DNA from: Lachnospiraceae bacterium | Lineage (GTDB): Bacteria; Bacillota; Clostridia; Lachnospirales; Lachnospiraceae | Direction: 5' to 3' | Assembly (NCBI GenBank): GCA_045628945.1 | Contig: JAZQQG010000046.1 | Span: 9,877 to 73,876, forward strand | DNA length: 64,000 nucleotides | In this document: positions 10,806 to 27,247 of the stretch, piece after piece | Layout of the letters: every line of letters begins with the position of its first letter | How positions within the stretch are numbered: the first letter of the stretch is position 1 | Notes under the pieces: generated by a model | Databases searched by the model: none | What the model was told of the DNA's origin: nothing | What the model saw: the letters and a program-made list of their open reading frames with translations, nothing else | Position numbers and translations under genes: made by a program

Positions 10806-12530
10806 CTATACATAGGAATAGATTACTTTCTCATGCGCCGCAGGAACCTGCCCGCGTACTCGAAAAAGCTCCGTTAACGTCAGGAATTCATAGCCACGGC
10901 ACTGCATAATCGTCAGAATATCATCCAGTGCTTCGGCGGTGGCAACATTCTCCTTTGCATCATGTAACAGAATAATCATACCGTTATCCTGTCCCTGCAG
11001 CGTTCTCTCAATTCGCTCGGGAATCGTCACCTCGGGATTCCAGTCATCACAGCCATGTCCCTCAATAAAGGGATGAGGAATCACCTCGTACATCTCCTCG
11101 CTCACCGCGATATAGGGAGGACGGAAGAAGGATGCTTTATGACCGGTATATTTCTCAATCAGAGCATCGGTCTTATCCACCTCGTCAAGCATCTCCTCGC
11201 GGGTAAGCTCCGGCATTCCGGGATGCGAGAAGGTATGGTTATTAATCTCGTGACCTGCCGCATCCATGGCTTTCAGAATGTCTCCGGTCTCCTCATCGAT
11301 ATTGCAACCGTTCACAAAAAACGATCCCTTCACGCCGTGCTTTGCAAGAACCTTAAGTATCTCCGGCGTCGTATCGGTATTCGGGCCGTCATCAAAGGTC
11401 ACTGCCGCAAAACGTTTTGCAGTCTGACCGCCGGCAGGAAGTCTTGAAGGAACCGCCTCGTTCCCGGAATGAATCCGGAGCAGTTCGCAGATTCGCTTCG
11501 ACAAAACAATGGCCGCCTTACGATGGGTCACCTCCGTCGGATGGTAGTCTGCTACCAGACCGTCTTCGGGACGCTGCTCCTCAAAAGGCATTGCATAGGT
11601 CATCTCGTCTCCGGTCTCCTTGCGGAAAAGTGCCACTGCCTCCTCGACTTTGTCACACAGACGGGTTCCCATCATTCCCAGAGTACAGAGAATAATTGCC
11701 TTGGGGTTACGTGCACGAATGACCTTTAAGAACTTCACATAGTCGTCACGATACCAATCCCGACGATCCGCATGCTCTACACAGTAGCTGTCATCGTTGG
11801 TACCCAGATTGATTACCACCACATCGGGTGTACGATGATTCTCAAAATCCCATGCAACGTCCTGCGGTTGTACACCACCCAAGTTCCCGTAAGAGAAGCC
11901 AACCTTCTCATAGAAAAGAGGAATCAACTGCTCGGGATGTCTCGTTTCTCCATCATCACTGTAACCCGAGATAATACCGTAACCGCTTAACGATACGAAG
12001 GCATAATCGGCATCCAGATTCGTAACGGTACGATAGGAGTAGCTCTTCGTATTATCCTCAGTCTCCGTGCGGAAATGATGAAGCGGATCCTCATCCTCCA
12101 CTCCGTAACCGCAGGTAATGGAATCTCCCACAATCTCAATGAAGAGATCCTTATCCTCCGTGGGTGCAATCGTAGTGCTTCCCGGATCGATTCCGGTAAT
12201 CATCATCGTGGACATCGCACTCTCCGAAAGCTTCAGTACACGTACCACGTCCCCGCAGCTCACAGGAACCTCAAAGGTCTTCACAGGCTCATCCATTAAG
12301 CAGGTAATCACGCGGCGACGATTCACGACGATACCGATTCGGGCCTGATTCTCCCCTGCCTTCGGATCGGAAGCCGTACTGTCTCCCGTTACTTCGATAC
12401 GGACGGTACTTGCTTCGCCAATCACCTTAAATTCAATTCCGCTTCCGGAATATGCGCACCATGCACCCTCCTTGCAGGCGTAGGCACGGCCTAAGAATTT
12501 CACATTCTCTTTTGCAATCGGTGTCATCAT
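10806..12530 (-). CDS. Bifunctional carbohydrate esterase: CE2-like (beta-sandwich + SGNH) N-terminal half fused to a CE4 NodB-type polysaccharide deacetylase
   Basis: The SGNH part has block I GDSITCGYG, a GTND block and a DYHPT His block. The CE4 motifs are TFDDGP, HTFSH, RPPY and LLHD. No signal peptide is present. Confidence 0.8.
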   Translation of the reverse strand: MMTPIAKENVKFLGRAYACKEGAWCAYSGSGIEFKVIGEASTVRIEVTGDSTASDPKAGENQARIGIVVNRRRVITCLMDEPVKTFEVPVSCGDVVRVLKLSESAMSTMMITGIDPGSTTIAPTEDKDLFIEIVGDSITCGYGVEDEDPLHHFRTETEDNTKSYSYRTVTNLDADYAFVSLSGYGIISGYSDDGETRHPEQLIPLFYEKVGFSYGNLGGVQPQDVAWDFENHRTPDVVVINLGTNDDSYCVEHADRRDWYRDDYVKFLKVIRARNPKAIILCTLGMMGTRLCDKVEEAVALFRKETGDEMTYAMPFEEQRPEDGLVADYHPTEVTHRKAAIVLSKRICELLRIHSGNEAVPSRLPAGGQTAKRFAAVTFDDGPNTDTTPEILKVLAKHGVKGSFFVNGCNIDEETGDILKAMDAAGHEINNHTFSHPGMPELTREEMLDEVDKTDALIEKYTGHKASFFRPPYIAVSEEMYEVIPHPFIEGHGCDDWNPEVTIPERIERTLQGQDNGMIILLHDAKENVATAEALDDILTIMQCRGYEFLTLTELFRVRGQVPAAHEKVIYSYV

Positions 12531-14293
12531 TTCAAATCCTCCAAAAACTTACGCATCCAGCTGGGTCTTTGTTGCAGGAAAGTCGTAATATCGTTCAAGT
12601 CACTTTCGAGTCGGTCTAATCCGGACCACAGATCCCACTCGCCGCCCTCACGGCGCTTATCCAGATACTTCTGGAAGATTCTGTGTTCGGTGATTCGCTC
12701 CTTGTGAATCTCGTTTAAGGCCGCCACCGCCGAATCCGGGTCGAATACGGTATTCATCAGTTCTTCCATCTTGTTGAGGAAATAATTCTTGCAGTCCTCA
12801 CGCTTCATTAATCCCGCAAACATCGGGGAATAGCGGTTCGAGCTTTCCTTCAGTATCTGCTTCAGATTGTCGTATCGATAGCCGGTCTCGGTCTGGTTGT
12901 ACAGATCATAGCAGTAATCCAGGTCATGTAAAAGATAACGCCATCTTCCGTCGAACACACCGTCTCCCAGAGGTTCTCCGGCAGCAGGAACATAGCGGAA
13001 AAGTTTGTAGTTATTCTGAGGCCAGTCATTGTTGTTGATATAAATCTGGAAAGCATAATAATCCAGATAATTCTCGACATCCATGAATTTGCAAAGGTCG
13101 GCGTAGACATCCTCATCGCACAGATCCAGTTTCGTCATCCAGGAATAGGTCTCATTGTACTGCTCGGACCAATGAGGTGTTACGGTATCTCCGGGTTCAA
13201 TTCCGTCCTCACCGCTATCGGCCTTCCATTGCTCATTTCCCTCTAACACAACGAAGGTACCCTCGCCGTCACCGTATTTCTTTTTGAAATAGGTATCGCA
13301 GTAGTTCTCATGCATCCACAGAAGACCGTAGTAATTCCGGTTCACGAAAACCGTAACCGGGATAACCGCTTCATAATCGGAGAATCCCGCTGCCATAGCC
13401 AGACGCTGGTTGAACTCATCGCGAATGTAACCAAACTGGAAATCATTACCAAGATCACGTACCACAAGCTTCTTATAGGAGGCAACCGTCGTCATGCCGT
13501 CTGCCGCCACCGTGCCGAATACATCGGTCTTGAAACGGTTGTTGCCATACTCGTCTCTTGCATAGAGCTTAAAGGACTTAATGACATTGCCACGGGAAGC
13601 ACCGCCGTAAGGACGAAGGCCCGCGTTCTGGGATAACAGAAGCGTACCCTTGGCATCAAACAGCTCCACATACACCTCACGCTCCGTTTCCTCGCCTCGC
13701 TTCTTGGCATTTTCGCCGTAAAGAGTTCCCTTAGGAGCCTGCAGAAGTTCTTCCGGGTTACCGCTTACGCACATAACCGCCGTGGAGAAACGACTGAGCA
13801 CACCCTTATTGACAAGAAACGTTCCGGTACATTCCTCGGAGAAGGAACCGTCCGGATACTCGATAATCGAGCGGACCACATGGACCTCCGGATATTTGTC
13901 ATCCGTTCCGCGCTTCAACGTAATGGTGCCGGAGTAGGCCGATGTTTTCTTACGGGGATCCGAACCGTCCGTCGTAAAATAGATGGTTCCTCCCTGCTCC
14001 GGATCCGCTAAGGAAAGCGATAGCGTCTGCTCTTTTTCGTAGAACCCCGGTACCACGGAAAAAAGAATCGCGCCCTGCTCATAGTGATACGGCTTATTCT
14101 GTTCAATGATGTGATTCACATCCAAATGCTCGTTTTCCTCATAGAGAAGCTCCCGCTCCACATCGGAAAGCGCCGATGCATCCTTCTGATTCGTGCTAAG
14201 CATTTTCTCACGAACCGAGCCTTCCGCACATCCGACTAACATGGTGGACAGAAGCCCGATGCCGAGAATTCGTAACCAGCCTTTTTTCTTCAT
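12527..14293 (-). CDS. CotH kinase-family lipoprotein with an N-terminal chitobiase/hexosaminidase-C-like (Fn3-like) domain
   Basis: Lipobox LVGCAEG. The GTIYFTTDGSDP motif marks the CHB_HEX_C-like domain. The CotH-like core includes VFVNRNYYGLLWMHE and NNDWPQNNYKLFR...LHDLDY. Confidence 0.75.
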   Translation of the reverse strand: MKKKGWLRILGIGLLSTMLVGCAEGSVREKMLSTNQKDASALSDVERELLYEENEHLDVNHIIEQNKPYHYEQGAILFSVVPGFYEKEQTLSLSLADPEQGGTIYFTTDGSDPRKKTSAYSGTITLKRGTDDKYPEVHVVRSIIEYPDGSFSEECTGTFLVNKGVLSRFSTAVMCVSGNPEELLQAPKGTLYGENAKKRGEETEREVYVELFDAKGTLLLSQNAGLRPYGGASRGNVIKSFKLYARDEYGNNRFKTDVFGTVAADGMTTVASYKKLVVRDLGNDFQFGYIRDEFNQRLAMAAGFSDYEAVIPVTVFVNRNYYGLLWMHENYCDTYFKKKYGDGEGTFVVLEGNEQWKADSGEDGIEPGDTVTPHWSEQYNETYSWMTKLDLCDEDVYADLCKFMDVENYLDYYAFQIYINNNDWPQNNYKLFRYVPAAGEPLGDGVFDGRWRYLLHDLDYCYDLYNQTETGYRYDNLKQILKESSNRYSPMFAGLMKREDCKNYFLNKMEELMNTVFDPDSAVAALNEIHKERITEHRIFQKYLDKRREGGEWDLWSGLDRLESDLNDITTFLQQRPSWMRKFLEDLK

Positions 14294-14306
14294 AGGAATC
14301 CTCCGT

Positions 14307-16076
14307 TTATTGAATCGTAATTGAAGTAATGGTTAGTTTTTTGCCGTAAACAATAATCCCGATATCACCGATGGTTGCATTCCCGCCGATGGAACTGTTC
14401 CAATCCGCACCGGTGACGGTGAGGGTATTGCCACTCGCAGAGCACTGGCAGCACCAGTTCTGATCGATGGCAACATTGCCGGAAAAGGTAACCGTAATCT
14501 TCCAATTTGCTTTGTCGGAAGAGCCGGTATTCTTTAAGCTGACATTCAACTGATAGTAATCATTCGTACCGTCATTCCAGGTATTGGAGGAAGAGACGTC
14601 CGCCGTGCAATTGGCCCCGGAACCGCTTCCGGAGATGTTGTCCGGATTGCCGGACCACTCTCCGCCTCCGGAACTGCCGGAGCTTCCGGAATCCCCGGAG
14701 CCGCTGTCGTCCGAACCGTAGTCGGTGGTGCCCACCTTTTCCAGATCTCCGTTCATCATCTTAATGAACCATTTGCCGGAGTCCGAGAGATCCTTCGTCG
14801 TCCAGCCGGAGGTCTTGCTTGTCTTAATTAAGGAACAGGTCTCGTTCTTATTGGACAGCTGCCAGATACAGGAGCTGATTCCCAGATCATCCAGCAACTG
14901 CATCCACTTGGCTGCTTCCTTCTCATTGATGTTACCGCTTCCGGAAGCATTGCAGATTCCATACTCGGTAACAAAGATCGGAAGACCGCTCTTATGTGCC
15001 GAAGCGCATTTCTTGCGAAGATCGTCCTTGTGGGTATCCGCATAGAAATGCAGGGTGTACATGATGTTATCGTACTTTGTAATGGGATCCTTGGCGGCCT
15101 TGTCCACATCCTGACTCCAGGTCGGCGTACCGACAATCACGATACCATCCTCGTCATTCTCGCGAATCACACCGATGACTTCCTCTGCGTACTTCTTGAT
15201 GGTCGACCAGGAGGTACCGCCGTTGGGCTCATTACAGATTTCATAGAAAACATTGTCGTTGTCCGCATACTTCTCGGACATATACTTAAAGAATTCCTTG
15301 GCTTCTTTTTTGTGTGTGGTCGGATCGTTGTCATTCAGAATATGCCAGTCGATAATACAGTAAAGGCCAAGCTCGGTACACCAGTCCACCAGTTGACAGA
15401 CCGTATCCCGCTGTGCCTGCTGTCCTTTGGCATCCTTCGTGGTATAGCCTGCATATTCCTCGGTATATACCGCGATTCGGAAAATCTGAATTCCCCACTC
15501 GTCCTGCATGGTCTGCAGGGCCTTTTTATTATTAAATTCCGGGAACCATACAATACCGAAGCTGCTGACACCCTTTAACTGTACCGGATTGCCGTTTTGG
15601 TCCACCAGGTCTGCACCGCTAACCGCAAGTTTTCCGTAGGTTGCCACCGGCGTTCCGTTGGGCGTGGTCGGCTTCTTATCGGAATCCTTCTTGTCCGTAT
15701 CCGTCTTGCCGGAGTCTTTCTTGCCGGAGTCTTTCTTATCGGAGTCTTTCTTACCTGTGTCCGTCTGATCGGAATCTGTTTTGCCATCGGTAGCGGAAGT
15801 ATCCTCCTTCGAGGTCTCGTCTCCTTCCTCCACCGTCTCGTCGGTAAGCTCCTCCTCTGGATTCAATTCCTCCGATTCTTCCCCGGTTAAGCTATCCTCC
15901 CCGGTCATTCCTTCCGTCTGCGGATTCTGGATATCCCCCGCATCCGTTCCGTTTATATTCTCTTCCGAAAGCGTGGGATTCAGCTTGGAGGGTCCTTTTT
16001 TACCACAGCCGGCAAGGGCAAGAACCACTACCAGTACCAGGCACAGGAATCCTCTGTACAGTTTTCTTTTTTTCAT
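14307..16076 (-). CDS. GH5 endo-beta-1,4-glucanase-like lipoprotein with an acidic/K-D-S-T linker and a C-terminal CBM2-like module
   Basis: Lipobox LAGCGKK. The GH5 acid/base motif is ICNEPNG and the nucleophile motif is FVTEYG; DWHILND is also present. The C-terminal ~110 aa has spaced Trp/Asn/Cys residues resembling a CBM. Confidence 0.85.
   Translation of the reverse strand: MKKRKLYRGFLCLVLVVVLALAGCGKKGPSKLNPTLSEENINGTDAGDIQNPQTEGMTGEDSLTGEESEELNPEEELTDETVEEGDETSKEDTSATDGKTDSDQTDTGKKDSDKKDSGKKDSGKTDTDKKDSDKKPTTPNGTPVATYGKLAVSGADLVDQNGNPVQLKGVSSFGIVWFPEFNNKKALQTMQDEWGIQIFRIAVYTEEYAGYTTKDAKGQQAQRDTVCQLVDWCTELGLYCIIDWHILNDNDPTTHKKEAKEFFKYMSEKYADNDNVFYEICNEPNGGTSWSTIKKYAEEVIGVIRENDEDGIVIVGTPTWSQDVDKAAKDPITKYDNIMYTLHFYADTHKDDLRKKCASAHKSGLPIFVTEYGICNASGSGNINEKEAAKWMQLLDDLGISSCIWQLSNKNETCSLIKTSKTSGWTTKDLSDSGKWFIKMMNGDLEKVGTTDYGSDDSGSGDSGSSGSSGGGEWSGNPDNISGSGSGANCTADVSSSNTWNDGTNDYYQLNVSLKNTGSSDKANWKITVTFSGNVAIDQNWCCQCSASGNTLTVTGADWNSSIGGNATIGDIGIIVYGKKLTITSITIQ
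15672..15775 (-). repeat. In-frame 15-nt tandem repeat encoding the (K)KDS(G/D)K linker of the GH5 protein
   Basis: Three adjacent copies of CGGAGTCTTTCTT(GC/AT/AC) lie at 15710-15754, flanked by degenerate copies. The region translates as KKDSDKKDSGKKDSGKTDTDKKDSDKK. Confidence 0.8.
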
Positions 16077-20196: not shown

Positions 20197-20226
20197 AGCG
20201 CTCTCCTGTAGCGGTCCTTGCTACTA

Positions 20227-21270
20227 TCAATTCAGGATAGTCTCATAATCGAATGCCCGATAGGTCTCACGAATTCTATTAATGAGTTCTTGATAATTCG
20301 TAGCAGTCACCAAATGATTCTCCGTCTGTATATCTCTAAATAGTAACGAATTAATCTCCGGCGAATAATGAATTACATCTTTGTAATAATCCAGATTGGT
20401 AGTAATCGTTAGCTCATCGATATAACTATACAAACGAACATTTTCATACTGCGTCAATTCTCGAAAAGCCATCTCGATTATCTCCATCGTTTCATCCCAA
20501 TCTTCCTCACTCCTCGATGCCCAGTTCAGAGCACTCATAGGAGGAAAATATAACACAAATTCCGTATTCGGATTCTCAAGAATAAACTTCACAAAATACT
20601 TCTCAATATTCTCTTTCTCGTTTTTCCGCATTTGATCTGTTAAATGCGATTCATAAGGAACAGCTAACTGACTATCATATGCTGCCAAAGCATACTCTCT
20701 GCCATACCGGATCCCTGAATAATCATAGTAGGTCGAAAAATCCATTTTTTCACGACCCTGTATGGTATTCCTTATTCCTCTACGAGCAAACTCTACCGTT
20801 GAGAGATTGAAAATATATTTCCAATCATTTAAATAATTATTGTCGTATAGAAAAAATGGATAATCATAACCTTCGTACCACTCATTCGTTCCGCTTGTTA
20901 ATCGTCCGTAGTTGATTGAGAAAAACATAAGTTTGATATGATCATTATTCGCAAACGCGGTCTCCATCGCTCTTCCATACTCTACCGGATTAGCACCTGG
21001 ATAGATAACCTTAACTGCATCAACATGAAATGCTTCATTGAAATCCGCCAAACTACCATACTCATCATAGGAAGTACCTAACATTACTGCATCGTAATCA
21101 AAATTCCGAAGAATTCCATCATTGATCCAACGATTATCCCCCCATTCATAGCCAAATGATTTCATGGGCTTTCTATAGTGAAAAAAAGGATCCACTACAA
21201 CTATCAACCCTCCCAGGAGAATTGTTGGAATAAATACTATTATCAATTTTATGATTAATTTTTTCATCAC
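20227..21270 (-). CDS. Membrane-anchored DltD-like / SGNH-like accessory protein (predicted extracytoplasmic acyl-transfer partner of the MBOAT)
   Basis: It has a single N-terminal TM (LIIKLIIVFIPTILLGGLIVVV) and a candidate Ser block (VMLGTSYDEY). A C-terminal Asp-x-x-His (KDVIHYSP) resembles that of DltD. It has a 1-nt overlap with the MBOAT gene. The assignment rests on motifs and context only. Confidence 0.5.
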   Translation of the reverse strand: MMKKLIIKLIIVFIPTILLGGLIVVVDPFFHYRKPMKSFGYEWGDNRWINDGILRNFDYDAVMLGTSYDEYGSLADFNEAFHVDAVKVIYPGANPVEYGRAMETAFANNDHIKLMFFSINYGRLTSGTNEWYEGYDYPFFLYDNNYLNDWKYIFNLSTVEFARRGIRNTIQGREKMDFSTYYDYSGIRYGREYALAAYDSQLAVPYESHLTDQMRKNEKENIEKYFVKFILENPNTEFVLYFPPMSALNWASRSEEDWDETMEIIEMAFRELTQYENVRLYSYIDELTITTNLDYYKDVIHYSPEINSLLFRDIQTENHLVTATNYQELINRIRETYRAFDYETILN

Positions 21271-22793
21271 TAAAATCCTGCATAAATAAAGTTGCTAACT
21301 GATCCCAAAATAGTAAATGCAACAGACAATACCACAACCCAGTAAATGCACCAACGTAGCAACAACGGTTTGGTATTTATCACCTCAACGGTCTTTCGTC
21401 CGGAATACAAAATATACTCCTCAAACACCATATTAATCACAGCAATGAGCAATAATATGACACCTAACACGCCACCAAATCCCATCAACGAAACTCCATG
21501 CATATGAATCGTTGAATAGAGCCCCATTGGTGAGAGGCTTACATGATTTGAGAAAATGCAACGCAACACCCGAATTCCCGATGCAATGGATTCCGCTTTA
21601 AAAAAGACAAAACCAACTGTAAGCAACAGAATTGTTCGAATAACACGAAAAGCATCAAACCACACCTTTTTCTCCAGATGAAAGCGTTGCCGCAAGGTTG
21701 CAAAGAATGGTTCCATAATCTGCCCCATTACAATGATAAACCAGAACCACAAACCTTCGCCCAGAACATATTTCCAATCACTTCCATGCCAGATGCCCAT
21801 TGCAGTCCACACAAAAAACATTGCAATATAGGAAGGCACTTTTTTTCCTTGCTTTTTACCAAAGATTTTCTTCGCTCTTGTTCCAACCGCTATCAAAAAG
21901 CGTGACTTCAATAGCGGATTCATAATATAGTCGCGTAAAAAACTACCTAAAGTAATATGCCAACGATTCCAAAACTCTCGAACATTTTTAGACAACAACG
22001 GCGCATCAAAATTCTCCGTTAATGTAATCCCCATACATTGGGAAATTCCGATAACGATATCCATGCATCCAGAAAAATCCGCATACAACACAAAGAGATA
22101 CAAAACAGCAGACATCGCTACCCATACCCCATTGTATTCGGAAGGATTATAGAAAATCGCATCCACCAAAATTGCCAACCGACCGGCCACCAAGAGTTTC
22201 TTGCACAGTCCCCAAGCTGTACGTTTTAGACCGTTAACAACTCTTGCATATTCAAATCGATGTTCCGCGAACAGTTGCGCTCCCAGTTGCCCATGCCGCG
22301 AGATAGGTCCGGAAATCATCTGCGGGAAGAAAATCATATACAGAAGTAATTTCAACGGATTATTTTCACTTATCGTTACACTCCAATAAACATCCAAAAG
22401 ATAGGAAATCATCTGAAGTGTATAGAAACTAATTGCAAACGGAGCAACAAAATGGACATGCTGTATTTTGGTCTTGGGCCAAAAAAGTCTAATTGTATCT
22501 ATTCCTAGATTTGTATATTTCAAAATCGCCAAAATAGCTATGTTGGTTATGAGTATCGCTACTACAACCAGTTTTTTGTGCCTTGAACTCTCTTTTGAAA
22601 TATAATGCGCTCCCCAATAAGTACTCAACCAACCAATTGCCACGTATATCAATGCGTAAAAAGGGCAGTTTAGGATATAGAATCCTATACTACCCCCTAG
22701 TAACATAATCCATTGTAGCGATTTTGGAACAATCAGATAAAGAACCAAAAAAGCAAACAATACGATATAAAACAAGCAAGATGTAATCTCCAT
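21270..22793 (-). CDS. MBOAT-family membrane-bound O-acyltransferase (DltB/AlgI-like)
   Basis: 507-aa polytopic protein. The conserved His region is FWNRWHITLGSFLRDYI, compared with FW(R)RWHISL in DltB/AlgI. Confidence 0.88.
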   Translation of the reverse strand: MEITSCLFYIVLFAFLVLYLIVPKSLQWIMLLGGSIGFYILNCPFYALIYVAIGWLSTYWGAHYISKESSRHKKLVVVAILITNIAILAILKYTNLGIDTIRLFWPKTKIQHVHFVAPFAISFYTLQMISYLLDVYWSVTISENNPLKLLLYMIFFPQMISGPISRHGQLGAQLFAEHRFEYARVVNGLKRTAWGLCKKLLVAGRLAILVDAIFYNPSEYNGVWVAMSAVLYLFVLYADFSGCMDIVIGISQCMGITLTENFDAPLLSKNVREFWNRWHITLGSFLRDYIMNPLLKSRFLIAVGTRAKKIFGKKQGKKVPSYIAMFFVWTAMGIWHGSDWKYVLGEGLWFWFIIVMGQIMEPFFATLRQRFHLEKKVWFDAFRVIRTILLLTVGFVFFKAESIASGIRVLRCIFSNHVSLSPMGLYSTIHMHGVSLMGFGGVLGVILLLIAVINMVFEEYILYSGRKTVEVINTKPLLLRWCIYWVVVLSVAFTILGSVSNFIYAGF

Positions 22794-22804
22794 GATTATT
22801 CCAC

Positions 22805-23062
22805 CTAAATTCTGCTTAAAATAATATCAACCATCTCACCTACATTTTTCATGGTGTTCACTTCTCCCATGTTAAACTTTATGCCGAAACATTTCTCGAT
22901 TGCAACGACAAGATTGATATGTTCAAGACTATCCCAGTCTTCGATATCATTGGAAGTTGTCTCATCGGATACACAAATATCCTCGTCATCAAATACTTCT
23001 CGAAACACTTCATTTAACTTAACATACAATTCTTCTCTACTCATTTGACTCCTCATTTCCAA
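22805..23062 (-). CDS. Acyl/peptidyl carrier protein (DltC-like size)
   Basis: The phosphopantetheine-site motif is IEDWDSLEHINLVVAIE (the Ser of DSL). The likely true start is the ATG at 23044 (GAGGAG RBS, 79 aa), which overlaps the FkbH-like stop by 8 nt. Confidence 0.8.
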   Translation of the reverse strand: MEMRSQMSREELYVKLNEVFREVFDDEDICVSDETTSNDIEDWDSLEHINLVVAIEKCFGIKFNMGEVNTMKNVGEMVDIILSRI

Positions 23063-24827
23063 TTACATCGTTTTTGTTCACGTATTTTACTGGAATGGTG
23101 TATTCCCATTCCCGATTACCATTCTCATCTTCACGAACCAACGCAAAACCCTGATCCAAATAAAAGTCTCGCACCATACCGTTTTTCGCAGTCGGATAAT
23201 AGTAACCAATGATTTTGTCGATTCCATTTTTCTTACACGCTTGAACCAATGCATCCATCATCGCGTATTCCATATTGCGTTTCAACACGCGACAACTCAT
23301 AAGCCATAACTCAACATGACAACATGCTCCGTCTTTTCGTCCTATCACAACCGAAACCAATCCATTATCACCAAACTTATCCGACAAGCGCCCGCTCAAA
23401 GTGATATACTGTGGATTTTCAGCAATTGCCTCGATTTCTGCTTGCGTATAGCGCTTCGTTGTAAGATTAAACTGATTGCTCTTATTTGTCAGCTGTGCAA
23501 TGCGCGACATATAGAGTTCCTTAAACGGTTCTATCACGCCCTTCATCTGCAGTGATAACAGATAATCACGATAGTCCGTAAAACTCGCTTCCAGTCTAGC
23601 TCTTTCCGCATTATCCTTGTACATCTTATTTCGGCCCAGATCGTCTGCAGAGAGATTCGTTACCTCAAAGAAACCGCTTCTGTCAATTGTTTGAATATAA
23701 TTTTGAGGAGCATCCAGATACGGAGCTCTAACACCCGGAAGCTGTGCAACAACAATCTCACGTTCCGCAGGATTGTCGTCCAAAAAGACCAAACTCTCCG
23801 GTAATAAACTAAGTTCCCTTGCAATTGCAGCAAAATTACGATCCTTAGGTTCCCAATTTGCTTTTATTACAACAAAATCATCCGGCTTTAATACTCCATC
23901 CGGATGATTTAATCCGGCTATTGCATTCTCCTCTTCATTTTTCGAATCAATATTTAATACGATTCCCAGATCCTTATGCGCCTTAATATACTGCTGGATT
24001 TCAGTATAAACCTGCCCTTCAGACTCTTCCGGTCCGATTGCAAGATTATTTACTCCGTCGTCTCCAACGATTCCACCCCATAACGTATTATCCAGATCAC
24101 AGACAAATCCCTTTTTGTTTTTACCAAAAATAGACTTGATTATATTTGAAATATTAAACGACAGATACGGAATTGCAGACACATTCAACGCATATTTATA
24201 CATATGCCAGTAGAAAGGTTCCTGCCATTTCTTTAAGCCATAATCTGCAGAAATATAATTAATATCACAAATATAGAAGTTATTATGCGTCTGCGCATAA
24301 CGATAAAATTCTTGATTGATTCTACTTAGAAAATTCGTCGCACCATGAATATCACTCGCATCTCGATTCCCTAACAGGCGATAGAATGGCATCTCAAAAT
24401 TATTCTGAACAATTGGGCAACGATAGGTCTGTGACAGGCGGTTCCACATCGCCACAAATCGGTCCACTTCCGCATGAAGTAGATTCTCTATCACATCCTC
24501 GCTATCCTGAATTGTCGGATAGGTTGTAATATTACGATTGGTTGTATGTACATAAATAATATCCGGTGCAAAGTCTTCTAACTCTGGATTCGGAAACATT
24601 GCATCTTGATAATAACGATTATACTCAGACTCGTAGAATGACGGTTTGATTCCATAATCTAAGAGAAACAATTCCAAAATTTGTTTAATGTTACTGGTTG
24701 TTGATCCTCCCAAAATAGCAATCTTTTTCTCAATGAAAGAAGAACCACTTTCCAATAATACTCTTCTAATTTTCTTTTTATTAGCCAAAATGTAATCTGC
24801 ATCAAATGGATACTGTAATTCTTTCAC
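23037..24827 (-). CDS. FkbH-like HAD-IIIC phosphatase / acyl-loading enzyme
   Basis: The HAD motif I is FVCDLDNTLWGGIVGDDG, followed by SKNEEENA and VFLDDNPAEREIV. The C-terminal acyltransferase-like half contains LMSCRVLKR. The 596-aa architecture matches FkbH-type proteins. Confidence 0.8.
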   Translation of the reverse strand: MKELQYPFDADYILANKKKIRRVLLESGSSFIEKKIAILGGSTTSNIKQILELFLLDYGIKPSFYESEYNRYYQDAMFPNPELEDFAPDIIYVHTTNRNITTYPTIQDSEDVIENLLHAEVDRFVAMWNRLSQTYRCPIVQNNFEMPFYRLLGNRDASDIHGATNFLSRINQEFYRYAQTHNNFYICDINYISADYGLKKWQEPFYWHMYKYALNVSAIPYLSFNISNIIKSIFGKNKKGFVCDLDNTLWGGIVGDDGVNNLAIGPEESEGQVYTEIQQYIKAHKDLGIVLNIDSKNEEENAIAGLNHPDGVLKPDDFVVIKANWEPKDRNFAAIARELSLLPESLVFLDDNPAEREIVVAQLPGVRAPYLDAPQNYIQTIDRSGFFEVTNLSADDLGRNKMYKDNAERARLEASFTDYRDYLLSLQMKGVIEPFKELYMSRIAQLTNKSNQFNLTTKRYTQAEIEAIAENPQYITLSGRLSDKFGDNGLVSVVIGRKDGACCHVELWLMSCRVLKRNMEYAMMDALVQACKKNGIDKIIGYYYPTAKNGMVRDFYLDQGFALVREDENGNREWEYTIPVKYVNKNDVIGNEESNE

Positions 24828-25552
24828 TCTTTGACCTCATGTTTAACTACAATATTCTGTCCTGTGAATTCATTTGCATCTTCAATCAACGGAAGAAGAG
24901 CTTCAACGGTCTCCTCAACAGAGAGGTTCACCCCTCCCGGCTGTTTTGCCGCATTTTGTTCAATAATAAGGCTCGGAATCTCCGAGAGAAACTTCGTTTC
25001 CATCATTTCCGGGGATATTCCATTAACTGTAATCCCTTTCTCAGCATATTCTACAGCCACCGCTTTCATTAGTCCCAAAAGAGCATACTTGACTGTTACA
25101 TAGGAAGATTGATATTTAGGCGGTATTCCATCTGTATATGCCGTTAGCATCAACACCACTTTTCCAAAATGTTTCTTAGTCATTTGTGGAATAATATATT
25201 CAAGCAACAGCGTTGCCGATCTGACTGAAATGTTCCATCCTAAATCATAATTTGACCAAACATCTTTATGAAACTGCAAATTGTATGCCTTTGGAGCGGG
25301 CAAGTGTACAAAGTGTGTCGGAACCAACTCTCTCTCTTTCAACATCTGAATAAATCTCTCTGTCTCCATCAAAGAGGAAAAGTCCGCCTGAATCGAAATA
25401 ACATTGCGATATTGTGAAATCAATGCATCCCACTCAGGATCCGGTGTTCTGTATTGAAGAATAATGGTTCCGAATTTCGCCGCCACCCTCTTTAATAAGC
25501 ACTTACCAATATCAGAAGATGCTCCGGTTATTAGAAGTGTTCTATTATCCAT
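24824..25552 (-). CDS. Short-chain dehydrogenase/reductase (SDR), ketoacyl-reductase-like
   Basis: The cofactor motif is TGASSDIGK and the catalytic region is SSYVTVKYAL (YxxxK). It has a 4-nt ATGA overlap with the FkbH-like gene. Confidence 0.85.
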   Translation of the reverse strand: MDNRTLLITGASSDIGKCLLKRVAAKFGTIILQYRTPDPEWDALISQYRNVISIQADFSSLMETERFIQMLKERELVPTHFVHLPAPKAYNLQFHKDVWSNYDLGWNISVRSATLLLEYIIPQMTKKHFGKVVLMLTAYTDGIPPKYQSSYVTVKYALLGLMKAVAVEYAEKGITVNGISPEMMETKFLSEIPSLIIEQNAAKQPGGVNLSVEETVEALLPLIEDANEFTGQNIVVKHEVKE

Positions 25553-25562
25553 TTACAATCTC

Positions 25563-25994
25563 CTATTCAAGAAATCCGGTCGTCAACAATCCGCGTAAAA
25601 CTTTTTTCCCTAATTGATTATGGATTTCTACCTTCACGACCATCTGCTTTACTGACTCGTGTAATTCTTTTACAGTTCCAACAACCGTGAGACAATCTCC
25701 CACGTAAACCGGGGAGACAAACTTAGTCTCTACTTGCTGAATAATACAGTATTTGCCAGGCAAATATACCCCGCCCAGTTGTGAAATCAACGAGGCCGTA
25801 AGCATCCCATATACCACCTTGCCGCTAAAACCATAATTTCTTGCAAAATTCTCATCGGTATGAAGCAGATTCGTATCTCCTGATAATTCACAAAAGCTCT
25901 TCATTTTATCTTCTGTGATAGCAACAGTAAACTGTTCCGTCTTCCCAATTTGCAATTGTTCGAAGGTGTATTCATTCATCGCATATTTCCCCAT
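25563..25994 (-). CDS. MaoC-like (hotdog-fold) dehydratase
   Basis: 143 aa. SGDTNLLHTDENFA matches the MaoC dehydratase active-site region (D-x4-H). It is the first gene of the cassette, and an extended -10 (TGATATAAT on the minus strand) lies upstream. Confidence 0.8.
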   Translation of the reverse strand: MGKYAMNEYTFEQLQIGKTEQFTVAITEDKMKSFCELSGDTNLLHTDENFARNYGFSGKVVYGMLTASLISQLGGVYLPGKYCIIQQVETKFVSPVYVGDCLTVVGTVKELHESVKQMVVKVEIHNQLGKKVLRGLLTTGFLE

Positions 25995-26074
25995 AATTAG
26001 TTGTAATTATATCAAAAAAAGCCAACAATATCCATAGATTATTCCAACAAAACTCTACATTCCTTCCTTGAATA

Positions 26075-26110
26075 GACAAAAAGGCCACCCACATAACATG
26101 GGTGACCTTT
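26075..26110 (-). terminator. Intrinsic terminator after glgD
   Basis: Minus-strand RNA is AAAGGUCACCCA-UGUUAUG-UGGGUGGCCUUU followed by UUGUCUAUU. It lies about 20 nt downstream of the glgD stop. Confidence 0.7.
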
Positions 26111-26128
26111 ATAACCTTTTGATAATCC

Positions 26129-27247
26129 TTACAGAATGTAACGATCTGCGTCGTTGGCCAGGATACGGATACCATCTTCGCCCTTCAGCACAGCGCCGGC
26201 ATCAATCGTAGAATGGCTCTCGATAATGCAGTTCTCGATTACCGCATTGTCGTTAATGTAGACATCGTTCAGGATGATACTGTTCTTAATGGTTACATTG
26301 TTGCCAACGTATACTTTTTTGAACAGAACCGAACCCTCAACCGAACCGTTTACGATGGAACCGCTGGCTACCAGAGAGTTGCGAACCTTCGAGCCGACAT
26401 TGTACTTGGCAGGAGGAAGGTCATCCACCTTGGAGTAAATATCGGGATACTGATGGAAGAAGTAGTCGCGAATCTCAGGCTTTAAGAAGTCCATATTGGT
26501 CTCGAAGTAATCCTCTGCGGACGCAATATTGCGCCAGTAGTCGGTAATCTTATAACCATTGATCTGCTTAACATCCTTGTAACGAATCAGGATGTCTTTT
26601 ACGAAATCATAGCGGTCTTCCTTGGCACTCTCCTCAATCAATTCGATGAGCTGACGACGACGAATGACATAGATACCGCAGGAAATCGTGTTATGCTTGG
26701 CAGCAATGGGCTTCTCCTCGAATTCAACGATACGACCGGCATCGTCCAACTTTAAGGTGCCGTAACGCTTCACATCAAAGTTCTCATCCACATCGCGGCA
26801 TACAACGGTAACGTCTGCCTTCTTCTCGATGTGATCCTCCAGAAGCTTGTTGTAATCCATCTTATATACGCAGTCACCGGAAGCGATGATTACATAGGGC
26901 TCATGACTCTCCTTTAAGAAAGATAAGTTCTGATAGATGGCATCTGCGGTTCCGCGATACCAGTTGCTGTTCTCGCTGGTAACGGCGGGAGTGAATACGA
27001 ATAATCCACCCTGCTTACGTCCGAAATCCCACCACTTGGAGGAACTTAAATGCTCCGTTAAGCTGCGGGCATTATACTGGGTAAATACGGCAACCTTCTG
27101 CACATGCGAGTTGCTCATATTGCTCAGGGCAAAATCAATACTGCGGTAACTTCCGGCGATAGGCATTGCGGAGATCGCACGCTTAGCGGACAGTTCACGC
27201 ATTCTGTGGTTATTACCACCTGCAAGAATAATACCGATTGCTCTCAT
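26129..27247 (-). CDS. glgD: Glucose-1-phosphate adenylyltransferase, GlgD (regulatory) subunit
   Basis: 372 aa. It has a nucleotidyltransferase fold without the full GlgC active-site glycine loop (ILAGGNNHRM), plus a C-terminal left-handed beta-helix. It lies directly downstream of glgC with a 1-nt overlap. Confidence 0.88.
   Translation of the reverse strand: MRAIGIILAGGNNHRMRELSAKRAISAMPIAGSYRSIDFALSNMSNSHVQKVAVFTQYNARSLTEHLSSSKWWDFGRKQGGLFVFTPAVTSENSNWYRGTADAIYQNLSFLKESHEPYVIIASGDCVYKMDYNKLLEDHIEKKADVTVVCRDVDENFDVKRYGTLKLDDAGRIVEFEEKPIAAKHNTISCGIYVIRRRQLIELIEESAKEDRYDFVKDILIRYKDVKQINGYKITDYWRNIASAEDYFETNMDFLKPEIRDYFFHQYPDIYSKVDDLPPAKYNVGSKVRNSLVASGSIVNGSVEGSVLFKKVYVGNNVTIKNSIILNDVYINDNAVIENCIIESHSTIDAGAVLKGEDGIRILANDADRYIL

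Follow-up and report, generated by a model that had tools for sequence, protein, structure and literature searches.

A six-gene cassette predicted to feed a three-carbon acyl group from a carrier protein to an MBOAT for cell-surface acylation

In the Dlt pathway, an acyl group carried on a small carrier protein is handed to a membrane-bound MBOAT and then to an extracytoplasmic SGNH-fold protein. The locus studied here, in a 64-kb window (the whole stretch of Lachnospiraceae bacterium DNA that was analysed), raises the question of what a similar arrangement does when no DltA ligase accompanies it and an FkbH-like enzyme stands in its place. The preliminary description reported six tightly packed co-directional genes encoding a MaoC dehydratase, an SDR reductase, an FkbH-like HAD-IIIC protein, a carrier protein, an MBOAT and a TM-anchored DltD-like protein, and this observation held on re-examination. 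All six ORFs lie on the minus strand between 20227 and 25994, and the junctions are +10 nt (MaoC to SDR), -4 nt (SDR to FkbH), -26 nt (FkbH to ACP; or -8 nt from the ATG at +18, which gives the 79-aa form on record in the public collection), +11 nt (ACP to MBOAT) and -1 nt (MBOAT to the sixth protein, hereafter p347 for its 347 residues). The motifs DLDNTLWGG, MSCRVL, DSL and FWNRWHITL are all present. One small correction concerns the MaoC start, which is more likely the ATG at 25979, as this is preceded by a GGGGA Shine-Dalgarno-like sequence and the 143-aa form is not on record. The features and the evidence for each are collected in Table 1.

Table 1. Features of the cassette and its boundaries, with positions in the 64-kb window
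Position	Strand	Feature	Evidence
26080..26110	-	Terminator-like hairpin of the upstream gene glgD; upstream boundary of the cassette	14-bp stem with 6 GC pairs followed by a T-run; GC content drops just downstream
26006..26034	-	Promoter-like site (TGGATA-17-TATAAT, extended -10 TG) in front of the first gene	10 of 12 matches, best site in the region; a consensus match only, and the number of sites in the region equals the shuffle expectation
25563..25994	-	MaoC-type (R)-hydratase/dehydratase, single hotdog	PF01575 (MaoC_dehydratas) 9.6e-18; best PDB hits human 3-hydroxyacyl-thioester dehydratase 2 (3ir3, 4e-17) and PhaJ; hydratase-2 residues D40/N42/H45 invariant in 28 cassette homologues
24824..25552	-	Classical SDR reductase (candidate alpha-keto reductase)	adh_short_C2 1.7e-23; best PDB hit FabG 2ph3; Y151/K155 (YxxxK) invariant and S/T137 conserved in 18 cassette homologues
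23037..24827	-	Long FkbH-like enzyme: FkbH_N domain (1-235), HAD-IIIC phosphatase (about 240-390), GNAT-fold C-terminal acyl-transfer domain with Cys512	FkbH TIGR01686 at 260 bits against a cut-off of 146.65, plus FkbH_N; 3SLR (BF1531) 3.5e-51 by sequence and TMt 0.81 by fold; C-terminal domain matches GNAT folds at TMt 0.6-0.74; D244, D246, S295-K296-N297, K328, D350-D351 and S511-C512-R513 invariant, including against the FkbH homologue of a zwittermicin-type NRPS/PKS cluster
22805..23062	-	Acyl carrier protein (79-85 aa; phosphopantetheine Ser45 in the 85-aa numbering, codon 22928-22930)	PP-binding 2e-4 and generic ACP NCBIfam models; best PDB hit putative ACP 2LML, 1.3e-19; no DltC match at E<=1; D44-S45 invariant in 61 homologues
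21270..22793	-	MBOAT membrane acyltransferase with catalytic His279 (FWNRWH)	PF03062 1.3e-12; TIGR04091 DltB at 134.8 bits, below the cut-off of 375; only PDB sequence relatives are DltB structures (1e-18, core residues 120-352)
21273..21290	-	C-terminal acyl-shuttle hexapeptide FIYAGF (Tyr504) of the MBOAT	Read from the sequence; matches the FxYxxF motif whose Tyr is auto-acylated in PatA and sits on DltX in the Dlt system, and whose role as an acyl-Tyr shuttle is experimentally established for PatA and DltX (PMC12148441); 82 of 88 MBOATs in the first 84 related loci end the same way
20227..21270	-	p347, TM-anchored extracytoplasmic SGNH-fold acyltransferase candidate; Ser67, Asp298, His301	No Pfam, NCBIfam or PDB sequence match; 111 homologues with S67 and H301 invariant and D298 in at least 90%; AF2 pLDDT 92, TM helix 2-26; best PDB fold hit DltD 6o93 (E 1.3e-4, TMq 0.40), followed by GDSL/PAF-AH esterases and OatA-C
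20200..26100	.	Low-GC island that coincides with the cassette (edges approximate)	GC 0.35-0.43 inside (about 0.39 overall) against 0.48-0.52 (about 0.50) in the flanking pth/mfd and glgD/glgC genes

The preliminary description further proposed that the last three genes copy the DltC-DltB-DltD logic, that FkbH replaces DltA, and that a glycerate-derived C3 unit, perhaps remodelled towards a lactyl- or pyruvoyl-type unit, is esterified to a cell-envelope polymer. This interpretation was partly supported. Its core withstood each of the conditions that had been set in advance to refute it, as the FkbH-like protein keeps the HAD Asp residues and the Cys of the SCR motif, p347 has a predicted SGNH/DltD-like fold and triad, no adenylation or ketosynthase motif occurs in any of 164 related loci, and our literature search found no prior description of the combination. 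An adenylation motif (PS00455) was likewise absent from all six frames of the 64-kb window. However, three corrections are required. First, the last three genes are not Dlt homologues in the family sense: the MBOAT scores below the DltB cut-off and carries the fused C-terminal FxYxxF shuttle of PatA/AlgI-type MBOATs that DltB lacks, the ACP is not DltC-like, and p347 resembles DltD at the fold level only. Second, the p347 family usually partners carrier-less MBOATs, whereas FkbH-linked MBOATs usually have a different SGNH-like partner; p347 itself is therefore not specific for carrier-fed systems. Third, the system is not confined to Clostridia, as relatives of this MBOAT occur in Lachnospiraceae, Oscillospiraceae, a Synergistaceae MAG and Sinorhizobium pSymB, often inside polysaccharide loci.

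Is the MBOAT coupled to the FkbH-like enzyme and the ACP, or merely adjacent to them? In a genome survey centred on p347, every MBOAT of the type found in the window (E<1e-70) lay in an FkbH/ACP locus, whereas about 75 generic MBOATs did not. The window-type clade (E 1e-77 to 1e-152) is separated from the generic MBOATs (E about 1e-25 to 1e-57), and its members were not seen without a nearby ACP or away from an FkbH gene, with the exception of one related locus (L085). Among 32 FkbH-centred loci with full flanks, 28 have an ACP and 17 have the window-type MBOAT; however, 9 of the 32 have no MBOAT within 9 kb and one uses an AT3 acyltransferase instead, indicating that FkbH-ACP products also go elsewhere. 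In 4 of 4 look-ups centred on the MBOAT and chosen without reference to FkbH, an FkbH_N protein and a 78-82-aa ORF were adjacent, including a Synergistaceae MAG with the same six genes. In Sinorhizobium meliloti, pSymB carries an MBOAT (ending FLYQGF), a p347 homologue (hhalign 98.2%), an ACP and an FkbH-like gene beside KPS export genes. The neighbourhoods of relatives also include Wzx, Wzy, glycosyltransferases, NDP-sugar enzymes and ABC exporters, although the window itself contains no polysaccharide or teichoic-acid locus that would point to an acceptor.

The nature of the acyl group is suggested by the first two genes. Of 29 MaoC-containing loci, 28 also have a reductase, either an SDR or an aldo-keto reductase, which is what a dehydration followed by keto-reduction predicts. 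This matches the route to polyketide starter units in which DH-KR proteins convert glyceryl-S-ACP to lactyl-S-ACP in FR901464 and lankacidin biosynthesis (He et al. 2014, as summarised in PMC4765723), the only characterised FkbH, DH and KR combination. We propose with moderate confidence that the FkbH-like enzyme would take 1,3-bisphosphoglycerate, hold it on Cys512, remove the phosphate with its HAD domain (Asp244/Asp246) and pass glyceryl to Ser45 of the holo-ACP; the MaoC dehydratase would remove water to give enol-pyruvoyl/pyruvoyl-ACP; and the SDR would reduce the 2-keto group to give lactyl-ACP. The MBOAT (His279) would then move the acyl group from the ACP thioester on the cytoplasmic side onto Tyr504 of its own shuttle on the outer side, from which p347 (Ser67/Asp298/His301) would esterify a hydroxyl of a surface polymer, in relatives most likely a capsule, exopolysaccharide or O-antigen-type glycan. 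Our analysis establishes the gene order, the domain identities, the conservation of catalytic residues, the folds and the co-occurrence statistics, whereas every biochemical step of this scheme is inferred, including the substrate, the order of dehydration and reduction, the transfer from ACP to MBOAT and the acceptor; we found no published biochemical test of any step. In particular, the long FkbH-like subfamily has a 235-residue N-terminal domain, as in BF1531, that NRPS/PKS FkbH enzymes lack, so its substrate could differ, and the MaoC dehydratase is not the PKS-type DH of the precedent.

The alternative that survives best, although it remains tentative, is that the same machinery transfers glyceroyl, pyruvoyl, acryloyl/3-hydroxypropionyl or another C3 derivative rather than lactyl, and that MaoC and SDR might act in another order or direction, for example with the SDR oxidising glyceryl-ACP as FkbK-type enzymes do. 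Many relatives have only the core FkbH-ACP-MBOAT-partner genes without MaoC or SDR (related loci L004, L011, L111, L126 and L137), which implies glyceroyl transfer there, and other relatives add an aldo-keto reductase, a split transketolase and a type II thioesterase, so the chemistry clearly varies. The linkage of MaoC to a reductase and the lactyl precedent argue against this reading for the present cassette.

It is also possible, but unlikely, that two independent modules happen to be neighbours, with the MBOAT-SGNH pair O-acetylating a polymer from acetyl-CoA, as PatAB or AlgI/J do, and FkbH-ACP-MaoC-SDR making an acyl group that a cytoplasmic or other transferase puts on a nucleotide sugar or another molecule. 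The roughly 75 p347-MBOAT pairs without any FkbH or ACP nearby, the FkbH-ACP loci without an MBOAT or with an AT3 acyltransferase, and the PatA-type fused shuttle, which characterised acetyl-CoA users also have, are in line with this view. However, the distinct MBOAT clade travels with FkbH and ACP across phyla, the ACP and MBOAT genes are adjacent in most relatives as they are here, and the cassette contains no other acyltransferase that could consume the acyl-ACP.

A polyketide or lipid secondary-metabolite pathway, in which FkbH-ACP would supply an unusual starter or extender unit and the MBOAT would acylate a small molecule, is very unlikely: although the biochemically characterised FkbH enzymes, as far as is known, work in PKS/NRPS pathways and plasmid-borne homologues in Bacillus and Streptomyces lie in such clusters, none of the 164 related loci has a ketosynthase motif, PKS-type homologues lack the N-terminal domain and share only 27-30% identity over residues 242-570, and the neighbours are housekeeping genes here and polysaccharide genes in relatives. 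A divergent but genuine Dlt system with DltA encoded elsewhere is equally improbable, because, even though DltB and DltD are the nearest solved structures and some database sources label close MBOAT relatives 'DltB', it is contradicted by the DltB score, the fused shuttle and absence of DltX, the lack of DltC similarity and of adenylation motifs in the window and in the 164 related loci, the absence of any role for an FkbH, a dehydratase and a reductase in D-alanylation, and the homologues in Gram-negative Sinorhizobium next to capsule export genes.

How, then, does the cassette compare with characterised systems? The Dlt pathway (DltA, DltC, DltB, DltX and DltD), which D-alanylates teichoic acids, is the only previously described carrier-protein-fed MBOAT/SGNH system, and a 2025 mechanistic paper states that other MBOAT/SGNH pathways lack a carrier protein (PMC12148441). 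Here there is no adenylation step, loading is predicted to be by an FkbH-like enzyme, the MBOAT is about 80 residues longer than DltB, and the acyl group is predicted to be a C3 hydroxy-acid rather than an amino acid. The O-acetyltransferases PatA/PatB, AlgI/AlgJ/AlgX, WssH/WssI, PatA1/PatB1 and CcsH/CcsI share the fused motif (FIYANF in PatA), a separate extracytoplasmic SGNH partner with a Ser-His-Asp triad and an expected cell-envelope polymer target, but they use acetyl-CoA, whereas a dedicated ACP gene precedes the MBOAT gene here. FkbH/OzmB/ZmaN-type enzymes load glyceryl onto an ACP (reportedly; Dorrestein et al. 2006; Chan et al. 2006), and share with the cassette the HAD-IIIC and C-terminal Cys domains with all catalytic residues, the dedicated ACP and, in the FR901464 and lankacidin route, an adjacent dehydratase and ketoreductase; here, however, there is no PKS or NRPS to receive the unit, and the reductase is a free-standing SDR and the dehydratase MaoC-type, rather than PKS DH*/KR* domains. 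The closest solved relative of the FkbH-like protein, Bacteroides fragilis BF1531 (PDB 3SLR), is a structural-genomics target of unknown function of which only the N-terminal 387 residues (N-terminal and HAD domains) were solved, and its entry title describes no function or partner proteins.

In summary, the six genes are best explained as a self-contained operon for acylating an extracytoplasmic glycopolymer with a glycolysis-derived C3 acyl group, probably lactyl, whose donor would be a carrier-protein thioester rather than an acyl-CoA. The system would therefore be a hybrid, carrier-fed like Dlt but with a self-shuttling MBOAT, and this combination is common in gut and rumen bacteria.

The six ORFs of the cassette exist as the preliminary description reported them, all on the minus strand, and in the order MaoC, SDR, FkbH-like protein, ACP, MBOAT and a 347-aa protein (p347) they are separated by junctions of +10, -4, -26, +11 and -1 nt. 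The -26 junction becomes -8 if the ACP starts at the ATG that gives the 79-aa form on record in public data, and the MaoC gene more probably starts at 25979. The five cassette proteins found in the public cluster collection are singletons. The cassette forms a sharp compositional island (about 0.39 GC against 0.50), with GC of 0.35-0.43 inside and 0.48-0.52 in the flanks and with edges near 20200 and 26100, and it is inserted between pth-mfd and a strong glgD terminator hairpin with a promoter-like site. Because no terminator-like site lies before pth-mfd, the cassette may have been acquired horizontally and may read through into pth. The rest of the window holds transporters, plant-fibre enzymes, glgCD and murC, but no glycan or teichoic-acid locus that would indicate the acceptor in this genome. 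Three secreted or lipoprotein-like plant-cell-wall enzymes lie in a row (a CE2-GDSL esterase fused to a CE4 deacetylase, a CotH-domain protein, and a GH5 cellulase with CBM2 and a long Asp/Ser/Lys-rich linker), suggesting that the host is a fibre degrader. Relatives suggest a Clostridia, Lachnospiraceae-like, fibre degrader.

Locations of the cassette genes, of neighbouring features and of related loci (L numbers denote related loci)
Feature	Location	Strand
MaoC	window 25563-25994	minus
SDR	window 24824-25552	minus
FkbH-like protein	window 23037-24827	minus
FkbH_N domain (FkbH residues 1-235)	window 24123-24827	
ACP	window 22805-23062	minus
MBOAT	window 21270-22793	minus
p347	window 20227-21270	minus
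D27-P28-x-F30-H31 motif (p347 residues 27-35)	window 21165-21192	
glgD terminator hairpin with promoter-like site	window 26110-26006	
Low-GC island	window 20200-26100	
67-aa ORF, probably not a gene	window 25972-26175	minus
Three plant-cell-wall enzymes	window 10806-16076	
S. meliloti pSymB locus	L167:6681-11716 (CP140955.1 1048481-1053516)	
FkbH-ACP locus with AT3 acyltransferase	L172:10001-13116	
Variant cassette with split transketolase	L115:7485-18885	
FkbH-like plus ACP with VOC protein and nonulosonic-acid genes	L171:1-12511	
FkbH-like plus ACP with VOC protein, C. perfringens plasmid	L169:1558-5769	
Three small genes between SDR and FkbH	L002:12227-13002	
Three small genes between SDR and FkbH	L173:11709-12484	

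Pfam and NCBIfam searches confirmed five of the six assignments. The FkbH-like protein scores 260.1 bits on TIGR01686 against a curated cut-off of 146.65, covering profile positions 3-320 of 323, across the HAD-IIIC and C-terminal domains, and it also carries an N-terminal FkbH_N domain. Its N-terminal and HAD parts match the crystal structure of B. fragilis BF1531 (3SLR) at 3.5e-51 by sequence and with a TMt of 0.81 by fold, and its C-terminal domain has a GNAT acyltransferase fold. The preliminary description had set the presence of the catalytic Asp and Cys residues as a condition for its reading, and in an alignment with a homologue from a zwittermicin-type NRPS/PKS cluster on B. thuringiensis pBMB431 and with homologues from S. 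meliloti, C. perfringens and Subdoligranulum, residues D244 and D246 of HAD motif I (DxDxT), S295-K296-N297, K328 and D350-D351 of motifs II-IV, and S511-C512-R513 are all invariant. The C-terminal Cys reportedly carries the acyl intermediate in OzmB, and the same role for Cys512 is inferred by analogy. NRPS/PKS-type homologues align only to residues 242-570; the 235-residue N-terminal domain, with its invariant GGST and QNNF motifs, is present in polysaccharide-associated long FkbH-like proteins and in BF1531 but absent from NRPS/PKS-type FkbH homologues, and therefore marks a distinct 'long' subfamily. In the MaoC protein, whose nearest solved relatives are human 3-hydroxyacyl-thioester dehydratase 2 and PhaJ, the hydratase-2 residues D40/N42/H45 are invariant in 28 cassette homologues, and in the SDR, whose nearest solved protein is FabG, Y151/K155 are invariant in 18 cassette homologues. 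In the ACP, D44-S45 are invariant in 61 homologues and the best PDB match is a putative ACP (2LML, 1.3e-19).

The sixth protein, p347, matches no Pfam, NCBIfam or PDB sequence, either as a single sequence or, against the PDB, as a profile of 54 family members, and only the fold comparison was informative. It has 111 homologues, all unnamed or 'hypothetical', in which S67 and H301 are invariant and D298 is at least 90% conserved, so that the Ser/Asp/His triad is inferred from conservation. A confident AF2 model (pLDDT 92) shows an N-terminal TM helix (residues 2-26) and an alpha/beta domain, and its best PDB fold hit is DltD of E. faecalis (6o93, E 1.3e-4, probability 1.0), although with modest overlap (TMq 0.40), followed by GDSL/PAF-AH esterases, sialate O-acetylesterases and the OatA C-terminal domain. 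The preliminary reading of a TM-anchored SGNH/DltD-like protein thus holds for predicted fold and architecture, but p347 is not a DltD family member. In the family alignment, the D27-P28-x-F30-H31 motif directly after the TM helix is invariant or nearly so (DPFFHY here, DPYDIY in S. meliloti), and its position at the membrane surface suggests a contact with the MBOAT funnel or the shuttle peptide.

The core of the MBOAT aligns with DltB structures, and FWNRWH279, which contains the universally conserved catalytic His, aligns with efwnrwHmsl of 8jem/6bug. However, the protein scores only 134.8 bits on the DltB model (TIGR04091) against a cut-off of 375, and at 507 aa it is about 80 residues longer and ends in ...SNFIYAGF, with Tyr504, whereas DltB lacks the two extra helices and the motif. 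Anderson et al. 2025 (PMC12148441) show that the C-terminal FxYxxF motif of PatA (FIYANF in N. gonorrhoeae) is auto-acylated on Tyr and donates to the SGNH partner, and that DltB lacks this motif and uses the microprotein DltX instead. The cassette therefore mixes features: it has a dedicated carrier protein, as Dlt does, and an MBOAT of the self-shuttling type, as in PatA, AlgI and WssH. With the catalytic His, the C-terminal FxYxxF motif and an adjacent (1-nt overlap) TM-anchored partner of SGNH-type fold, the pair has the sequence features of bacterial MBOAT-SGNH envelope acyltransferases. In these pairs, Dlt excepted, the donor is acyl-CoA (acetyl-CoA) and there is no carrier protein; the genomic context, in which a dedicated ACP and its putative loading enzyme co-occur with this MBOAT clade, argues against such a donor here, although the donor can only be inferred.

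Comparative surveys were made from three starting points. A p347-centred scan of species-representative genomes found at least 580 relatives, mostly in Lachnospiraceae and Oscillospiraceae, and in 80 loci the p347 homologues are almost always next to an MBOAT. Of the 88 MBOATs across these 80 loci and four found earlier (L001-L084), 82 end in FxYxxF. Only a minority of these loci have FkbH and ACP, and those that do carry MBOATs much closer to that of the window (E 1e-79 to 1e-152) than the generic ones (about 1e-25 to 1e-57). An FkbH-centred metagenome scan found 518 relatives, of which 80 loci at 59-72% identity were kept; among the 32 loci with at least 7 kb on both sides, 28 have an ACP within 9 kb, 17 a window-type MBOAT, 23 any MBOAT, 17 MaoC and 10 an SDR. 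In an MBOAT-centred check, four MBOAT relatives (41-48% identity) were chosen only by how long their contigs were, and all four lie beside an FkbH_N protein and a 78-82-aa ORF; three also have MaoC and SDR, one is a Synergistaceae MAG with the same six genes, and three sit among Wzx, Wzy, glycosyltransferase and NDP-sugar genes. Outside Firmicutes, S. meliloti pSymB has an MBOAT ending in FLYQGF, then a 409-aa protein annotated 'TonB-dependent receptor', then an ACP and an FkbH-like gene (annotated 'HAD family hydrolase'), all next to rkpR and the KPS export genes. As the 409-aa protein is a p347 homologue (hhalign 98.2%, E 3e-14), its annotation looks wrong, and the same four-gene core therefore exists in a tractable alphaproteobacterium, where the genes are homologues of U8C43_12430-12445. 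Among Lachnospiraceae, a cultured carrier of the cassette is Lachnospiraceae bacterium YSD2013 (L005). Two unannotated plasmid records were uninformative.

The partner and tailoring genes are variable. In most FkbH-linked loci the gene after the MBOAT is not a p347-family member but encodes another TM-anchored protein with a (V/I)G(G/A/S)S block-I-like motif. A Pfam search of ten proteins encoded downstream of FkbH-linked MBOATs gave only two weak GDSL hits, and hhalign linked them to the p347 family over the N-terminal 116 columns only, at 90% probability. The tailoring genes fall into three sets: none, with the core only; MaoC plus SDR, as in the window; and MaoC plus an aldo-keto reductase (or an SDR), with a split transketolase and sometimes a type II thioesterase. 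In 28 of 29 related loci with MaoC, it is accompanied by a reductase (an SDR or an aldo-keto reductase). A variant cassette at L115 and ten similar loci (L103, L105, L109, L112, L116, L123, L131, L144, L150, L160) comprises Wzx, AT3, FkbH, aldo-keto reductase, split transketolase (N and C halves), MaoC, ACP, MBOAT, a 506-aa partner and a type II thioesterase, and the transketolase suggests an acyl group more elaborate than C3. At L172, a 69%-identical FkbH-like gene and its ACP are followed by an AT3 (Acyl_transf_3) membrane acyltransferase instead of an MBOAT, then DUF6020 and a GT2, and FkbH-ACP donors may feed both families of membrane acyltransferase. FkbH-like plus ACP also occur with a VOC/glyoxalase-family protein at L171 and on a C. 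perfringens plasmid (L169); one locus places MBOAT, partner, FkbH, a VOC protein and an ACP beside nonulosonic-acid genes, and the presence at L171 of NeuB, a CMP-sugar synthetase, DegT and ATP-grasp genes points to acylated nonulosonic acids on flagellin or capsule glycans. In some copies of the otherwise identical cassette (L002, L173), three small genes (DUF7724, DUF7723 and a weak DUF4160 match) are inserted between the SDR and FkbH genes, and they are absent from others (L001, L003, L170); this looks like a small mobile or toxin-antitoxin-like insertion.

The best-supported model has five steps. The FkbH-like enzyme would capture 1,3-bisphosphoglycerate on Cys512, the HAD domain would dephosphorylate it and glyceryl would be transferred to the ACP; MaoC would dehydrate this to pyruvoyl-ACP; the SDR would reduce it to lactyl-ACP; the MBOAT would transfer the acyl group from the thioester to Tyr504 on the outer face; and an SGNH-type transfer through Ser67 would place it on a polymer hydroxyl. 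The first three steps follow the established chemistry of OzmB, FkbH and ZmaN. They also follow the documented DH-KR conversion of glyceryl-S-ACP to lactyl-S-ACP of the FR901464/lankacidin type (He et al. 2014, as summarised in PMC4765723). The last two steps follow the PatAB and Dlt mechanism (PMC12148441). A dehydratase and a reductase are indeed encoded directly upstream of FkbH; by Pfam assignment, a MaoC-type hotdog and a free-standing SDR are different families from PKS DH/KR domains. What we observed directly is the gene arrangement, the family assignments, the residue conservation and the co-occurrence in related loci, whereas all five steps, including the use of 1,3-bisphosphoglycerate, the formation of glyceryl-S-ACP, the acyl donor of the MBOAT and the transfer to a polymer, are inferred for this cassette. 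The preliminary interpretation, in which an FkbH-type enzyme replaces DltA and the last three genes copy DltC-DltB-DltD, is partly supported: the FkbH-type identity of the putative loading enzyme and the predicted fold of p347 stand but membership of the Dlt families does not.

Orthology to the Dlt D-alanylation system was rejected. No PS00455 AMP-binding motif of a DltA-type ligase was found in the six-frame translation of the 64-kb window or in 10,905 ORFs of 164 related loci, although the pattern matched control motif strings. The MBOAT falls far below the DltB cut-off and has the fused shuttle motif. The ACP hits only generic NCBIfam ACP models, all below cut-off, and a PDB search returned 40 ACPs but no DltC at E<=1. 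p347 resembles DltD by fold alone. No DltX-like microprotein ORF occurs in the cassette; the only small ORF nearby, of 67 aa, overlaps the glgD 3' end and the cassette promoter region, ends in ...NYGEICDE without FxYxxF and is probably spurious. A PKS role was rejected because no ketosynthase motif occurs in any of the 164 loci, nor was one found in the window.

The system works like Dlt in using a carrier protein, and like PatAB or AlgI-J in its membrane half, but by the above criteria it is a member of neither subfamily. Its cytoplasmic half works like polyketide lactyl-starter biosynthesis, but no PKS is present. In the literature searched, nothing describes this combination, and searches linking FkbH with MBOATs, teichoic acids or polysaccharides, and with lactyl or lactate starter units and bisphosphoglycerate, returned nothing relevant. 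The system is abundant, as at least 8,000 FkbH-like clusters were found in public metagenomes at E<=1e-20, many from gut and rumen samples, with the top 120 all 67-72% identical.

A broader reading, which we regard as tentative, is that the cassette represents a second, widespread class of carrier-protein-dependent trans-membrane acylation. In this view, FkbH-like enzymes would divert a glycolytic intermediate onto dedicated ACPs, optional tailoring enzymes (MaoC plus SDR or aldo-keto reductase, split transketolase, VOC proteins) would diversify the acyl group, and self-shuttling MBOATs, and in some loci AT3 acyltransferases, would export it as an acyl-Tyr intermediate to SGNH-fold partners, which would decorate capsules, exopolysaccharides or glycoprotein glycans with O-lactyl or O-glyceroyl esters in gut and rumen Firmicutes, Synergistota and rhizobia. 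The current rule that only Dlt uses a carrier protein would then be wrong, and a new family of surface-glycan modifications in abundant gut commensals would become predictable from sequence.

MBOAT-SGNH pairs are the main route by which bacteria acylate envelope polymers, and these modifications shape lysozyme and antimicrobial-peptide resistance, immune recognition and biofilm properties. The field currently recognises one carrier-protein-fed example (Dlt, D-alanine) and several acetyl-CoA-fed ones, and the most recent mechanistic synthesis explicitly excludes carrier proteins from the non-Dlt MBOAT/SGNH systems (PMC12148441). On the inferred mechanism, this cassette combines the two designs and replaces ATP-dependent adenylation with direct capture of a glycolytic acyl-phosphate, and it predicts non-acetyl C3 ester decorations, lactyl or glyceroyl, on surface glycans. 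As a homologous four-gene core sits beside capsule export genes in the genetically tractable Sinorhizobium meliloti, this hypothesis is directly testable, and it could explain unassigned substituents in commensal polysaccharides.
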